64,000 bases of DNA from Oculina patagonica (Eukaryota): positions 42,160,001 to 42,224,000 of the forward strand of contig NC_135761.1 in assembly GCF_052425735.1 (NCBI RefSeq), given 5' to 3'. Numbering within the stretch: position 1 is the first letter of the stretch; the number at the start of each line of letters is the position of its first letter. Shown one piece after another: positions 51,650-64,000 of this stretch. Under the pieces are notes generated by a model, which made no database searches, had not been told where the DNA came from, and worked only from the letters and a program-made list of their open reading frames with translations. A program made the translations under genes and the position numbers.

Positions 51650-54600
51650 ATGTCACTCAATGCTCGAGGGATTCGAGACCTCCAGAAACGCAAATCAATT
51701 TTTACGTGGATAGAAAAACAGAAAAGTGACATAACGTTTCTTCAAGAAACCTATAGTACACCAGAAATCCTTAGTGATTGGAAATTCCAATGGCGTGGAG
51801 AAATGATCTATAGTCACGGTTCGAATCATAGCAGTGGAGTGCTCGTCCTCATTAACGAACAGCTACAGTTCGAATTAAAAAATGCCGTAATAGACGATAA
51901 CGGCCGTTACATTTTATTAGAGATGACCATCCAAGACTCTCCATTTCTTTTGTTAAATTTATATGCGCCTACAAAACTCAACGAACAAGTAGCCTTTTTC
52001 GAAGAAATCCTTTCTATTATTCAAACCACCAGCTTTGACACAGAATGTAGAATTATCATTGGTGGAGATTTCAATGTTCATCTAGATGCTGCTCTTGATA
52101 ACTCTGGAGGAAAAATTGAAACGAAATCTACTGTTAAAAATATTCATGATATAATGCTTGAGTATAACCTAATTGATATATGGTGAGTTCATAATCCAGA
52201 TAAAAAGCAGTTTACTTGGAGGCAAAAAACGCCGATTATTCAGCGACGCATTGACTTTTGGCTCATAAGTGATGAACTACAAGACGACATTCAAAAAGCA
52301 GACATCGTCCCAGCTATCAGAACCGACCATGCAGCAATCAGCTTGTCCCTCAATAGCCTAAAAGACCAACCATTTGGACCATCTTATTGGAAATTTAATT
52401 CAAGCCTTCTTGATGACGATACTTACATACAGCTTATTAACTCTGAATATCCAAATTGGATTATGGAATTTTCTGAAGTTAATGACCCAAGAGTTTTATG
52501 GGATTTAATTAAATACAGGATCAGACAAATTACTCTCCAATATAGCAAAACTATCGCCAAAAATCGAAAAGCACGGTTACAGAGAGCGGAAGAAACCCTA
52601 AAACAATGCGAGGAAATTTACAACAACAATCCATCAGAAGATAATATTATAAAGTTGGACGAAGCAAGGAGTGTGTATGAAGCATTGTATGATTATATTA
52701 TTCAAGGTAAAATAATCAGATCAAGAGTGAACTGGTATGAACAAGGGAAAAAAATTCAAAATACTTTTTAAATCTTGAAACCAACAAAACCGGAAAAACA
52801 TCGATTCGTCGGCTATTTAATTCAGATGGAAAAATAATTTTAAATTCAAAATTCATTATGAAAGAACTTGAGGATTATTACACATCTCTCTACAGAAACC
52901 AGGATTCAAGCGATGGTGACCGATTTATTCCAGATTTCACCAACAGCGTTCACATTCCTAAACTAAGCGATGATCAGAAAAATCTTTGTGAAGGAATTTT
53001 GTCAAACACTGAGTGTTTTAACGCACTATCTAAATTCCCAAATGGAAAAAAACCTGGAAATGACGGCTTAACACCAGAATTTTACAAAAAGTTCTGGAAT
53101 CTTCTTGGCCAACTTATGACCGATTCCTTGAATTTTTCTTACCTACACGGCGAATTGTCTAATTCACAAAAACAAGCAATAATAAGACTTATTGAGAAGA
53201 AAGGAAAGGATAGACGTTATATAAAAAACTGGCGGCCTATCTCTTTATTAAATGTTGACACTAAAATAGCTTCGAAAGCATTAGCATTGCGATTAGAAAA
53301 AGTATTGCCTTTTATTATAAACGGGGACCAATATGCTTATGTCAAAGGCAGAACTATTTTCGATGCGGTCCGGCCAATCGAAGACATCATGGAATACACG
53401 AGAATTAACCAGATACCTGGGTTAATGGTGGCAATTGACTTTGAAAAAGCATTTGATTCTATAAGCTGGAATTTTTTGCTAAAAGCATTAAAATCGTTCA
53501 ATCTTGGTGAATCTTTTGTTAAATGGATCTCTGTTTTTTATTCTAATATATCCAGTTGTGTCACAAACAATGGTTTTTCGACGCCATTGTTCAGTGTTGA
53601 AAGAGGTGTTAGACAAGGAGACCCGTTGTCACCGTATCTGTTCATCATAGTGTTGGAACTACTATTAATTAAAATAAGAAGTGATCCTCGTATTAAAGGA
53701 ATTAAAATTGGTAATATAGAGGTAAAACTTGCAGCCTTTGCTGATGACTTGACAACATTTGTACACAACAAAGCCTCCATAGAACATTTGTTCAGTACAC
53801 TGGGACTATTCGAAAAATGTTCAGGCTTGAAATTAAACAAAGACAAAACGGAGGCCTACTGGCTCGGGAGTAGCCATAATTGTAAACAAAACTTGGGTAT
53901 AGAAACTGTTAATGAACCAATGAAGATTCTGGGAATTTATTTTACGTATAATTCTCGCCTAAAACATGAACTTAATTTTGAAGCAATACTTAAATCTTTA
54001 AAGAAAACCTTGAATGGTTGGCAATGGCGAAATCTAACTGTGTTCGGCAAGATTCAAATCATTAAAACATTCGCAATGCCAAAACTCATGTACCGTGCTT
54101 CCGTATTAAATCTAGACAAAGATTTTTTGAAAAAGGTTAATTCTGTGATGTTTAATTTTTTATGGAACGGAAAAGATAAAATCAAACGCTTAGCTCTGAT
54201 CAGCGATTATAAAGATGGCGGTCTGAAAATGCCTCACGTGGAGTCTGCAATCAAAACTCAGAGAATCATTTGCCTAAAGAAGTATACTGAGAACTATCAT
54301 AGCCCTTGGAAAGGATTCTCAAAGATCACGGCGAGAAATTCCTTCTTCATTGTAATTATAATGGTGCTGATCTACCTAAACACCTTCCTAAATTTTATCC
54401 CGAGTGTTTTGAGACCTGGGCGACAGTCAATACTAAAGAAATGTCCTCCCGAGACGTCATCATGGATCAAATACTATGGAACAATCAATTTCTGCGTATT
54501 GGGGGCAAACCTCAATTTTGCAAAAAATCATATATGGCTGGAATTGTAAAGATAAAAGATATCCTTCTCCCGAACGGCAAATTAAAAACTTGGAATTTCT

Positions 54601-55400
54601 TTTGAGAAAAAGGGCTGAATTTTAACAATTATTTCTTAATCCTTGGTCTGTCAAAAGCACTTCCAGACGCATGGAGAGTCTTGATAAACTCGAAAAATCC
54701 ACAACCCCCTGATGCGCAAGAGCAGAGCACCACCACAATTTTGGATTTAACTCAGTTTGTGCTCAATTGTAATAATGAAGAAATTAAGCTCAGTGAACTC
54801 ACGAGCAAAAGACTGTACTGGATTCTGATAGGGAACATACACGTCCATCCTACTGCAAGATTAAAATACAACTCTTTATTTGATGATCAAAATCTTGACT
54901 GGAATCAAATTTATTTAACGCCACAAAAAGTGACTTTAGACATTAAAACAAGAATGTTTCAATTTAAAATTCTTAATCGTATAATATATACTAACAAATT
55001 GTTGAATAAAATGAGGCTAATAGATACCTCGTTATGTACGTTTTGTGGAGAGTACGAAGAATCTCTCAAGCATTTGTTTTTACACTGCAAATTTACCATA
55101 GATTTCTGGACGCATACTACTAACTGGTTAAATAAATTAAATATTACCATTTCTAGGCTAAATGACAGCGAAATTCTGCTAGGTATTACAAAAGAAAGTC
55201 CTCATTGGACTCTTCTCAATCATATTCTCATTGCTGGTAAGCAAGTAATCCACGCTAATCGGCTCAGGAAAACAAAACCACTCCTACCTCAGTTAATAGC
55301 TAAACTTAAATTTATTGAACACAATGAATATTGTATCGCTAAGAAAAGGGACAGGCTTAAATTTCACCTACAGAAATGGGAAATACTTAAGTTTTCTTGA
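51650..55400 (+). pseudogene. Tx1 no. 2 ORF2 (APE + RT + zf-RVT) with a few lesions
   Basis: APE motifs; PGNDG, NWRPISLLN, DFEKAFD, GVRQGDPLSP, FADD, CTFC..HLFLHC. Stops at about 52184 and 54603, frameshifts at about 52750 and 54310. Confidence 0.95.
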
Positions 55401-59815: not shown

Positions 59816-60359
59816 TGTCACTGCCACTACAATATATTTTGAAGTCAAGCAAGCCTTAAACCTTAGCTTCTGCTGCACTTCGGAGTGAGTCACACTTTAA
59901 AATAGTGCTTATCCCTTACAATGATACAGGCGATCCTGCTTCTTGAAAGAATAAGATATCTATCTTATGCTGCGCTGGCGGTAATTTCTGCACTGAAATA
60001 TGGGGGGGAGGTGCTGAGCATCCATCAATTTTTGCTTGGGGGACAACTGCCCCCCTCCCTGCTCCGCCGATTATGAGTTCGAAGTTGAATTGATTTTTCT
60101 TAGCAATGAGGTAAAGCGCAAAGGGTAAAAACAGCCAACAGGAGTTAGAAAGGATGATTGAAGAAAATTTCACTGGCATATATTTTTTTGTCTTTGCCTC
60201 AAAGAAGAATAAAAAGATTGAAGGATTGTGTTGTCAGTCGAGTAGTGTTGTACTATTCTGTAAATTCTCCTCTAGGATAGAACGTGCGCAAGACGACAGC
60301 AAAATTAAGTGTTGCTCTGTTTATACCGAACTCTTTAGACAGGAAACACGCAAGGAGTA

Positions 60360-60472
60360 ACACACATGTATGATGAGGGTTTTGGCGCAAATGGCAACAA
60401 ATAGCTCGGCTCGCTAGCTCGCCTCGCTCTTTGTTGCTATTTGCGACCAAAACCCTCATCATACATGTGTGT
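60360..60472. repeat. 113-bp hairpin
   Basis: acacacatgtatgatgagggttttgg.cgcaaat.gcaacaaa / tttgttgctatttgcgaccaaaaccctcatcatacatgtgtgt around a gctcg-rich loop. Confidence 0.9.
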
Positions 60473-61549
60473 AAGCGCGAGCGGCACGCAAAAAATCGCG
60501 AGCTGCATTGGTGCGCCAGAATTATTTTTCAATTGAACAAATGCTCTTATTGAGTAAACGAAGATGGGAAGAGGGAGAACTGGAGAAATTAACTTGAATG
60601 TAAAGAAAAACTTGAAAAGATCTCGTGGAAAAGCGTTTACAACCTACAAAAAAACTAAAGAAAATGAAAAACAAATAACAATCTTTTTAACAGACGAGCT
60701 GATTGAAAAATTAAAAAAACTAGACAGCAGTGTTGTCGCAAACGTTTTGACAAGCTAAACAAAACTTGCACGCTCCGGTGAGTGCATAAATTATCGAGTA
60801 ACACAGGAAGTCATTGTTTACCCTGTGCCAATTGCGTGGGAAACCCCCTTGACGTAATCTAATTCTTTTTTTTTTCATTTTGAATATTTTTAGCCGGAAA
60901 ACAACTCAAACTCTTTGTATGTGTGTTTTGAGAGCTATGATTTATTCAACAACAATATTTAATTTGACTAACATGTAAATATACCGTGAAATATTGAGCT
61001 AAGAACTTTCTAGCACATAAAAGAACAATATAAGATCACGGTAATTTTATTCACCAGGCGTCATTACTATTTTTAGTTAATAGGTTATTTCCCGATGTAA
61101 TGACGTCTTTTGTGACCAATCACCGTTAAAATTATAACTATATATTATTCACATAAGCTTTTTTGTATTACACAAACAATTATGGCCGATGTATGGAGAC
61201 GTTTATCAAACCTTTTTAATCGAAAAAAGAAGCAAAGACGCAGCTTACGGACATGAATCATTTGGAAACGACAAACTAGGATCTGATTATAATATTTTAC
61301 ATCAGCTATTCGTGCCTTCGCTTCGCGAAACCTAAGCAATTACGGACAACAATCAGATGCTTGGTCGTGAAGTTTGGTCACAAGGTTAAGTATATCGGAT
61401 GCTTGTAGACGTTTTTTCAAACATTTTTCGATCAAAATTAAGAAGATTTAACTCAGTTTATCGACATGAATCATTTGTAGATGTCAAACGATAGCCTAAT
61501 ACAACTAAAGCGTTTGCCAAACTTGACCAAAATTTGCCAAGTTACAAGC

Positions 61550-61880
61550 CAAAACACGTCATCACTTTGGAATGCAATCGGTTACGCCGTAACCTGAATT
61601 GACAAAATTATTTTAGTCACAGGCCTCAAAACGTCATCACTTTGAAATTTCAAATGGGTTACGCTGTAACCCGAATTGACAAAATCAGCCAAGTTCTCAA
61701 CCTTAAATATTCCGCCGTTGTCAAGGAACAATTTACCTTAGATACCGTGGCCATAGATGTCTGCCGTTGTCAAGGAACAATTTACCTTGGATACCGTGGC
61801 CATGAATGTCCGCCGTTGTCAACGAACAATTTACCTTGGATACCGCGGCCATAGATGTCCGCCGTTGTCAACGAACATTT
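61550..61880. repeat. Tandem repeat block next to the viral genes (two ~75-bp units, then 3.5 x 49-bp units)
   Basis: The 49-bp unit ccgccgttgtcaa(g/c)gaacaatttacctt.gataccg.ggccat.gatgt starts at 61712, 61761, 61810 and 61859. cgtcatcactttg.aat...ggttacgc.gtaacc.gaattgacaaaat occurs twice in 61555-61685. Confidence 0.9.
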
Positions 61881-62281
61881 AACTTAGCAACTGAATAAAA
61901 TTATTTTACTTAACACACTTGTAATGTTTATTGATTGCTTATTATATCATTAAAAAGCTGTTGATTTGCATAAGTCTGACGCTGTGGGACATTCACCCAC
62001 ACACAAAAAAAATTTGCATGCATTGTTCAGACAAGCCCTTGACTGTGGGGATTAAATCAAGTGTTTATTTTTTTTCTGATTTCGACTCGGCTGAAAGTCA
62101 CTTTAAGCACGCTTTAACCTTTTATTTTGCCTCGTTCAGGCAAACAACAACCTCTCTTGTGATGTCTCGAACATTTTTTTGCAACTCGAACGACAATGCT
62201 TCCATCACAAAGTAAACGACAAGATGAGCGCAGACAATCATTCTTTTATAAAATGAAAAAATGTTTTATTGGACTGAAATT

Positions 62282-62944
62282 TTATTTCGAAATGTCGGTA
62301 GCGCTTTCGAGAAGTTTTTTTTCCAATCTTTTGCGTTCTTCTCTCTTGATTTCTTCCCGAATTTTTCCGATGTCTGGCTGGAGTGAATTTCTTTGTTTTT
62401 GTGCAAAGTTTGAGCGTAAAGTATCTTTAAGTTGTCGATATTTCTTCATTTCTCGTGTGATCAGTTGAAACTCTTTGTCAGAAACAAGATTATCATTCAG
62501 AGCTTGTGAGACAGAGCTGTTTATCGAGTCATGTTTTGCAACAGCCAGAGCGAGGATTCTTGAGTGCTTATTAACTTTACGTTCAAGCTTTTTGTTGATA
62601 ACTGACAGGCCAGTGGAAGCTGCGCCAGATATACCTGCTACTGCTGCAACAGGAACGCCGATAACAATTCCAACACCAGTAAGTGAAGTCGCAACAGCTC
62701 CAGAAGACAGAGCTGCCGTCACGGCGCCAAGACAGACCACGGAATAGTGAATAACTTTCCGGACTTTTTTATATTTTTTTAACACAAGCCTGTAATGCTC
62801 AGCTTCAGCGGATATTTCTTTTTCAATTTTACTTATTTCAGTCAGCCGAAAATTCTCGGCATTTGTTGGGAGGCTTGGATAAAGTTGTGTTTCTTCGCGA
62901 TCACCATAAGCAGGGGCACTCGGGAGAACATTAGCAGATGACAT
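62282..62944 (-). CDS. Polinton/adintovirus-type membrane protein (so-called gasderminX-like), 220 aa
   Basis: LYPSL..FRLTEISKIEKEI..E...Y....KKYKK, a Gly/Ala-rich double hydrophobic segment (SLTGVGIVIGVPVAAVAG), then KVNKH..I..LA..K...I...VSQAL.D..VSDKEF.LI..E..KY..LK. ATG at 62944. Confidence 0.75.
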   Translation of the reverse strand: MSSANVLPSAPAYGDREETQLYPSLPTNAENFRLTEISKIEKEISAEAEHYRLVLKKYKKVRKVIHYSVVCLGAVTAALSSGAVATSLTGVGIVIGVPVAAVAGISGAASTGLSVINKKLERKVNKHSRILALAVAKHDSINSSVSQALNDNLVSDKEFQLITREMKKYRQLKDTLRSNFAQKQRNSLQPDIGKIREEIKREERKRLEKKLLESATDISK

Positions 62945-62966
62945 GGTCGTATACAATAAAAAAAAA

Positions 62967-63632
62967 TTAATTTAATTCTAATTCAAAATGCAGCGGAGCT
63001 CCAACAAAGTCAAACTTACTGCCAGTTTTGTCTTTGACGGTCAATGTGACACTGTTCACACTCTGAACAGCGTTGGTTCGACGTGAATTATTGATAAAAT
63101 TTTGAGGGTAATGAACCAAATCATAAGGTTTCCCGGTTATTGGTACACAAGCGAGAATGTCACTTGGCTTTCCATTATACAAGTTATTTTCTTTGGAAAG
63201 TAAATCGCAGTGAATGTAATAAAAGTCTGGCTTAGTAAAATCTTCAATTCTTGCGTTAGCAGCATCAACAATTGTGTTCTTAAAAAGTTTAGAAAGATTT
63301 TTATCAAAAGAAAAGCTTTCAATATTTTTTGTTTTTGTTATTGAAAAGCCTCTTTTTAAATCATCCCTTTTTACTGTTAGCTTTTGTTGATCTTTGAACT
63401 TATTAGCCAGGTAAGTTGTAATTTCATCAAAATTGTAGTTGCCTGGAAAAAAATCAGCAACATTGTTGCTCACATTGTTTTGTTTAATGCTAATGGAGCC
63501 AATTTCTTCCAGATTACGCCAGCTGTTTTGTAACGAGCATGACAGCAGGCTGATAAACCTTGGTTTTTCAATTGGCTGGTCAAAGTAAACAGATTTCCTG
63601 TTGGAACTCGCGTCGATTGTGAGCACAACCAT
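62967..63632 (-). CDS. Minor capsid (penton-like, single jelly-roll) protein of a Polinton/adintovirus
   Basis: Beta-rich. N-terminal YFDQPI...ISLLSCSL.NSW.N, PGNY, YYIHCDLL...LYNGKPSDILA, and C-terminal VNSVTLTVKDKTGSKFDFVGAPLHFELEL. Confidence 0.75.
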   Translation of the reverse strand: MVVLTIDASSNRKSVYFDQPIEKPRFISLLSCSLQNSWRNLEEIGSISIKQNNVSNNVADFFPGNYNFDEITTYLANKFKDQQKLTVKRDDLKRGFSITKTKNIESFSFDKNLSKLFKNTIVDAANARIEDFTKPDFYYIHCDLLSKENNLYNGKPSDILACVPITGKPYDLVHYPQNFINNSRRTNAVQSVNSVTLTVKDKTGSKFDFVGAPLHFELELN

Positions 63633-63672
63633 CTTTATAATTATCTTTTGAAAAATAAATCTTTAATATAAA

Positions 63673-64000
63673 ATGGCTCCGCCTATTCCGAGAGCTGATG
63701 ACATTTCTCAATCAACTTTTCTTGATTCCAAAGAAAGAGATTTTATGAAGTGGATGAAAACCCCAGAAGCAACTAAAATTTCTGAAGCGGCAAAAGACAA
63801 TGCGTGGAAACCTTTTCTTGCAAAATATCCAAACGCTGACCGAACAAAATTTGTTGCACAGGTTGAGTTTGCGTACAACCACACAGCAACGGCAGACATT
63901 TATTACAAGGCAGAGCAAGGCCATTTGATAAATGTTTTTGGCTCTGACAGCAAATATTGGAGCCCAGAGATGAAAAAAGCACTGGGGGTGAATCAAATTT
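63673..64000 (+). CDS. Uncharacterised viral-element ORF, 3'-partial (absent from the ORF track)
   Basis: tataaaATGgct start. Open for 109 codons to the window end (MAPPIPRADD..FLAKYPNADRTKF..YWSPEMKKALG). Divergent from the penton-like gene. Confidence 0.7.
   Translation, partial: MAPPIPRADDISQSTFLDSKERDFMKWMKTPEATKISEAAKDNAWKPFLAKYPNADRTKFVAQVEFAYNHTATADIYYKAEQGHLINVFGSDSKYWSPEMKKALGVNQI

Follow-up and report, generated by a model that had tools for sequence, protein, structure and literature searches.

In the right-hand part of the 64,000-nt stretch of Oculina patagonica DNA analysed here (the window; NC_135761.1, positions 42,160,001 to 42,224,000) lie the left end and the capsid-vertex genes of an element that belongs to a young Polinton-type family and survives here as a broken copy. 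In this family the terminal hairpins are probably kept matched by fold-back copying and the penton genes probably traded by recombination; we put the probability of this reading at about 0.68. By itself the locus, as a broken copy, matters little, and coral polintoviruses have already been published. Less ordinary are the covarying hairpins, the 5-bp target duplications, the penton alleles and the fact that no adenain ORF was found.

A defective copy in the window

The features of this copy, in window coordinates, are:

60355..60359, + strand: last five host bases, the would-be left half of a 5-bp target duplication
60360..60472, no strand: terminal palindrome, 113 nt (from fold and covariation)
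60360..60542, + strand: left terminal inverted repeat (TIR), ~183 bp, 98.9% identical over 183 bp to same-subtype ends elsewhere
60543..62281, no strand: variable left arm, without a long ORF in this copy
62282..62944, − strand: gene for a 220-aa protein, open and intronless
62967..63632, − strand: penton gene, 221 aa, allele A of four, open and intronless (assigned by predicted fold)
63633..63672, no strand: divergent AT-rich intergenic region, 40 bp (read from sequence)
63673..64000, + strand: first 109 codons of a conserved 565-aa protein, whose full ORF extends past the window
Beyond the window: a broken coiled-coil gene, a truncated major capsid protein (MCP) gene, an ATPase remnant, and ORFs of 204, 185, 127, 146 and 72 aa

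A first-pass annotation of 62282..64000 had described an abrupt switch to dense, intronless, lesion-free ORFs, but the element copy begins 1.9 kb earlier, at 60360, with the exact left tip 5'-ACACAC, and GC content shows no shift at the annotated stretch; the actual left end, with the covarying hairpin there, had gone unnoticed. The flank to the left is single-copy, and the partner of the target-duplication half at 60355..60359 is gone together with the right end. Two other sequencing runs each contain one contig that follows the single-copy flank to the junction at 60357-60359 and then continues into non-element sequence; the two continuations differ from each other and give a weak hint of an empty site. 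The variable left arm, which in certain siblings encodes a 194-263-aa ORF, here contains a 49-bp tandem repeat (61711-61883). Further left in the window, at 52858-55400, lies a broken non-LTR retrotransposon reverse transcriptase (PF00078 E 9e-37, PF13966) that is unrelated to the element.

The three open, intronless ORFs and the 40-bp divergent intergenic region reported earlier stand as listed above. The start motif TATAAA(A/G)ATG, said to occur on both strands, is present at the penton start (TATAAAGATG), whereas the 565-aa gene starts with TATAAAATG, without the extra base. Because the loose motif TATAAA[AG]?ATG turns up three times in the window's remaining 60 kb and precedes none of 11 other listed element genes, the shared start motif is just an AT-rich start context.

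The module had also been called intact and possibly reactivatable. Compared to its siblings, this copy carries one deletion of ~375 bp where the 565-aa gene meets the coiled-coil gene and another of 742-743 bp through the 3' end of the MCP gene and most of the ATPase gene; its MCP-like ORF is 343 aa long, compared to 417 aa in siblings. The copy breaks at G000:C4:42230177, where element homology ends a few codons inside a 141-aa gene, and the ~22 kb beyond it yielded neither an integrase nor a polymerase nor a right end. Given these two internal deletions and the loss of integrase, polymerase and right end, the locus is a defective copy, unable to replicate or integrate alone. The element does continue rightward past 64000, as had been predicted, and the genes expected there are represented by the truncated MCP and the ATPase remnant but not by an integrase, a polymerase or adenain. 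The openness of the window's three ORFs fits the original view of an intact, self-sufficient provirus; the deletions and losses speak against that view, as does the different flank of the only right end of this subtype that lacks a partner, and we regard it as extremely improbable. This lone right end, on C12, was considered as the missing half of the present copy and rejected for the same reason, its flank differing from the five bases at 60355..60359. The C12 arm (C12:8421440-8427316) has the same rare end subtype and starts in the same 141-aa gene in which the window copy stops, ~30 bases further on; the two flanks have no common duplication, and the coincidence reflects either chance or a common fragile spot. 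About 300 bases past the break lies a degenerate tandem repeat that matches only itself (L001:9500-10000, L002:2500-3700).

Size and architecture of the family

The annotated stretch has at least 35 near-full-length matches in the genome at 96-100% identity, itself counted, among 40 scored of 350 candidates; the nearest named homologs of the element proteins are 90-98% identical and are labelled Oculina patagonica, and the sequencing runs that contain the stretch include coral metagenomes, which points to a stony coral as the likely host. The end motif matched the genome 413 times, compared to 0 for a reversed control, and thus marks about 200 elements. We compared 68 copies, of which 34 were chosen by likeness to this penton, 30 by their ends (the first paired matches at most 18 kb apart on two contigs, among 100 listed, minus copies already included) and 4 otherwise. 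Two-ended siblings are ~15-18 kb long and are ordered TIR, 220-aa gene, penton, 565-aa gene, coiled-coil gene, MCP, A32 ATPase, small genes, rve integrase, polymerase, TIR. All seven core ORFs were full length in 11 of the 30 copies picked by ends. MCP copies of the family differ by a median of 1.4% and 6 of 1176 MCP pairs are identical, in keeping with the earlier description of the element as young. TIRs measured 134-249 bp in 22 siblings. Target duplications were exactly 5 bp in 22/22 and 27/30 two-ended copies, the three exceptions being two copies with N flanks and one with a single mismatch. The gene set, TIRs and target duplications of the siblings bear out the assignment to Polinton-type endogenous dsDNA viruses. 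The family works like a polintovirus and shows most Polinton features; its membership of the adintoviruses is unproven. Because the siblings are complete, we rejected the ideas that the element is a small satellite with capsid genes only or that it forms a single segment of a divided genome.

At C1:15281748-15314252 (L008-L012), the left arm of one element has received a second element of the same end type, which runs the other way; each of the two has its own 5-bp duplication. We rejected a head-to-head replication dimer for this inverted pair because the target duplications show one copy nested in the other.

Proteins of the element

The model of the 221-aa protein (pLDDT 74) matched the mavirus penton (E 1.2e-5) and Sputnik (E 5.9e-4) in Foldseek, and the top six rows of a VIA search were all virus capsids (PBCV-1, mavirus, Sputnik, EhV-201, an adenovirus), with Z 9.0 and rmsd 6.1 over 204 aligned residues for the best match; the protein also matches minor capsid proteins in a viral library. 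On its predicted fold, the 221-aa protein is a single jelly-roll penton (minor capsid protein), in agreement with its first description as penton-like. What we found was a penton fold with further virion genes following it, rather than a 221-aa protein that lacks a jelly-roll and stands alone. The adjacent 220-aa protein, which has 257 homologs, had been compared with gasderminX. Profile searches with 41 sequences against PDB and Pfam gave no gasdermin match, Atlas neighbours carried no names, and the Pfam matches obtained were weak and all below cut-off (RTX N-terminus in 16/41 members, SLATT in 12/41). Its hydropathy profile, with a Gly/Ala-rich hydrophobic stretch at about residues 83-110 and a charged tail, suggests that it is likely a membrane-active virion protein. 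The 565-aa protein has 2455 homologs; its model is poor (pLDDT 49) and gave no PDB match by Foldseek or VIA and no Atlas match.

The MCP candidate, a putative double jelly-roll protein, is the 417-aa ORF adjoining the ATPase gene. Of 8 members aligned, 4 gave a weak PF16903 (Capsid_N) match (best E 0.0045), and the ORF had no PDB match by sequence. The A32 ATPase of the siblings matched PF04665 above cut-off (E 3e-10). Their rve integrase matched PF00665 below the curated cut-off (E 2e-6) and an IS481-type DDE profile at E 8e-12. The ~1300-aa family B polymerase ORF of siblings contains the motifs YADFE, DANNLY, KLMNNSVFGK and YTDTDS and an endonuclease VII-like domain (PF02945 E 1e-6), whose DHxH and HxxCN motifs are kept in 39/39 full-length polymerases; PF03175 did not match this ORF, PDB searches gave chance matches only (E 0.08), and the N-terminal ~350 aa had no Pfam, PHROG or NCBIfam match. 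At E 0.1, Pfam gave no OTU domain at the polymerase N-terminus and no chromodomain in the integrase.

The search for adenain was likewise negative. In 34 copies we found no recurring unassigned ORF and no Pfam protease match, and within the elements of all 68 copies there was no adenain catalytic-type motif. In three near-complete relatives no adenain was found, and a genome search with PF00770 was empty, with a control that also gave no match; a cryptic protease in an unassigned ORF may have escaped all these searches.

Penton exchange and selection on capsid genes

The penton gene occurs as four alleles (35, 28, 2 and 2 copies) whose mutual identity is 35-51%, with 76% between C and D. The MCP gene has two alleles (55 and 13 copies, 58% identical) and the 220-aa gene two (50% identical), and the ATPase, integrase and 565-aa gene are of one type each. 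Exchange is sharply bounded: copies match the window copy at 93-99% DNA identity as far as 62986, carry a replacement penton beyond that point and return to the same level at 63619 or 63724, and the intergenic region at 63633..63672 is swapped together with penton alleles B and C. Divergence between pentons peaks at residues 41-140, which form the inserted domain of the model. All four combinations of penton A or B with MCP A or B were seen (28, 24, 7 and 4 of the 68 copies). In the same 68 copies coiled-coil A accompanies MCP A in 52 cases and coiled-coil B or C accompanies MCP B in 12, whereas the penton allele shows no such tie; the coiled-coil and MCP alleles may form a functional pair or be simply linked.

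To gauge constraint, we calculated pN/pS for shared variants, from copies with open frames only and with recombination ignored, and obtained 0.20 and 0.18 for MCP, 0.12 for the ATPase, 0.11 for the integrase, 0.36 for the 220-aa gene and 0.14 for the 565-aa gene. The value for penton A, 0.82, comes from 9/3 changes only and is not distinguishable from neutral. MCP, ATPase and integrase are under purifying selection, which Barreat 2021, in the passages covered, read as a sign of virion spread (PMC8097293).

These values bear on whether the family is now only an intracellular transposon whose capsid genes are open merely from a recent burst. Such a state would be consistent with the family being known here from contigs alone, with the lack of any match when MCP and 565-aa profiles were searched against viral contigs, with the adenain result, and with singleton variants that are near neutral in penton B (1.2) and polymerase B (1.0). 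However, shared MCP variants are as constrained as those of the integrase, and the nearest foreign homologs of the four penton alleles are only 43-58% identical, so import from other lineages is needed; we consider the transposon-only state rather improbable. Purifying selection on MCP and ATPase instead suggests that the family has spread with working capsids. Co-replicating elements would cross over in the conserved genes flanking the penton. Precise penton exchange among otherwise near-identical elements independently supports the view that, in corals, such elements encounter one another and recombine as viruses.

Terminal hairpins with paired changes

Every element end starts with a palindrome of 113-144 nt. 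The window palindrome has a 26-bp perfect outer stem, one bulge, a 15-bp inner stem and a GCTCG-rich loop, and its DNA fold of −51 kcal/mol (z −16) was reached by 0 of 200 shuffles. When we compared 16 related ends, hand-picked as distinct end types, both partners had changed in 17 of 41 stem pairs, and in no pair had just one of them changed. None of 500 shuffles reached this double-change count, which is not a probability because the 16 rows were hand-picked and related, and slid controls gave 1-3 pairs.

Among 56 two-ended elements there were 16 arm types, varying at 11 of 26 positions. Mismatches common to both ends, and therefore inherited, fell only at position 1 (22 elements) and position 23 (2 elements), with none at positions 2-22; mismatches at a single end, at positions 1, 4, 12, 16 and 18, are likely later mutations. 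The inner stem carries many inherited mismatches in these elements, with a less sure register in the 142-nt type. Three elements have differing arms at their two ends (L087/L088, L115/L116, L119/L120); each of these arms is self-complementary, and the elements are likely recombinants. Since 2/56 elements keep position-23 mismatches and 3/56 have unlike arms, fold-back correction would be neither complete nor obligatory across ends. The loop lay in a single orientation in 50/50 ends and in 59/60 (1 tie), or 109/110 together, with no flip/flop.

Relatives of the family share its gene order in 80 metagenome loci. At 54-66% protein identity, relatives had a hairpin in 10 of 16 loci with at least 800 bases of left flank, compared to a background of loose hairpins in host DNA of ~1 per 12 kb (five across 60 kb of the window and four across 50 kb of flanks), and in 8 of those 10 the tips were ACA- or AGTAGT-like. 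An end palindrome, of 150-180 nt, is also present in relatives whose tip is the canonical AGTAGT (L168:211-391, L214:392-540); thus, the hairpin does not depend on an ACAC tip.

The simplest reading, to which we give about even odds, has the inner arm serving as template for the outer ~22 nt when the single-stranded end folds back. Linear element DNA would be inserted by the integrase and copied by the polymerase through strand displacement, and the freed single-stranded 3' end would fold onto the inner arm, from which its last ~22 nt would be rebuilt. A change in the inner arm would thereby reach the tip, and loop orientation would stay single. The window copy was afterwards shortened by deletions and is inert on its own.

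Selection could instead keep the stem as a structure read by a protein such as the integrase, the polymerase or the packaging ATPase. The fixed tip and bulge, the loop motif conserved across subtypes, the compensated changes in inner-stem pairs as well, and the persistence of the hairpin in distant relatives despite unrelated sequence all fit a selected structure. However, stepwise selection should leave wobble intermediates and no pair is one-sided, and elements whose core genes are 95-99% alike can differ at as many as 11 of 24 arm positions, which makes it unlikely that selection replaces recopying. The hairpin could also be a parvovirus-like self-priming origin, at which the folded 3' end primes and the endonuclease VII-like domain cuts the junction. 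With the palindrome starting at base one, a 3' end that folds back would be paired, and the motifs of that domain are kept in every full-length polymerase. Hairpin transfer normally yields inverted loops, both flip and flop, although asymmetric resolution can avoid them; compared to that expectation, no inverted loop occurred in the 110 ends. The terminal base is unpaired in 22/56 elements, moreover, and a short AC repeat at the tip suits protein priming. Self-priming has been offered for protist virophages in a preprint that, in the passages covered, ties palindromes mostly to non-pPolB elements (bioRxiv 10.64898/2026.07.28.741278), and we judge it quite unlikely for the coral family.

In the literature covered we found no demonstration of how Polintons exit the chromosome and copy their ends. 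The ~400 ends, at least 16 natural arm variants and distant relatives described here amount to a short, defined DNA substrate with a natural mutagenesis series, and the arm variants allow end repair to be tested against self-priming.

Relation to known elements

Polintoviruses of stony corals were described by Stephens et al. 2024 as expressed and present in hundreds of copies, with endogenous MCP, penton, ATPase, polymerase, integrase and TIRs as in the family studied here (PMC11131425). The main text of that paper does not contain the words 'hairpin', 'target site' or 'gasdermin', and the passages covered do not treat ends, target-duplication length or penton exchange. Cnidarian outliers among Polintons and PLVs (Polinton-like viruses) are recorded in passages of Bellas 2023 (PMC10120064) and of a preprint (bioRxiv 10.64898/2026.06.19.733378).

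Adintoviruses and Maverick-Polinton groups 1 and 2 resemble the coral family in having polymerase and rve integrase, A32/FtsK ATPase, hexon (in the coral family the candidate MCP), penton and TIRs, and exchange of modules between lineages is reported for them in the parts covered (Starrett 2021, PMC8502044; Barreat 2021, PMC8097293). The adenain gene served to collect adintoviruses, whose virion modules are exchanged (PMC8502044; PMC11071296, passages covered). According to the passages covered, these elements encode adenain and have, in vertebrates, (AG)3 or (AGT)2 tips and 6-bp target duplications (PMC8502044, PMC8097293), whereas the coral family has ACACAC tips, 5-bp duplications, no protease ORF that we could find and an integrase without a Pfam chromodomain match. 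The 5-bp length falls inside the 5-8 bp range of Polintons, in whose polymerases HNH domains have been described (PMC10748475). Covarying ends, 5-bp duplications, the apparently missing protease and penton cassettes set this family apart from the polintoviruses compared here. It is conceivable, if doubtful, that the family represents a protease-less animal polintovirus lineage, widespread and circulating in corals, whose self-templating hairpin tips would be a third end design, between protein-primed adenovirus ends and parvovirus hairpins, and whose pentons would be swapped like phage tail-fibre cassettes onto a near-constant capsid.

A search of the main texts of freely accessible papers on Polinton end hairpins, endonuclease VII, mosaic pentons and protease loss gave no report of end palindromes in animal Polintons and one relevant source, for end palindromes, the Halocafeteria preprint (bioRxiv 10.64898/2026.07.28.741278). 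In its passages covered, Halocafeteria virophages and PLV subtype 4 have, as here, TIR palindromes adjoining the target duplication, hairpin priming is proposed, the elements belong to a protist host and are mostly non-pPolB, and covariation or orientation analysis does not appear. The coral family, by comparison, has an animal host, a family B polymerase and more than 100 testable ends.
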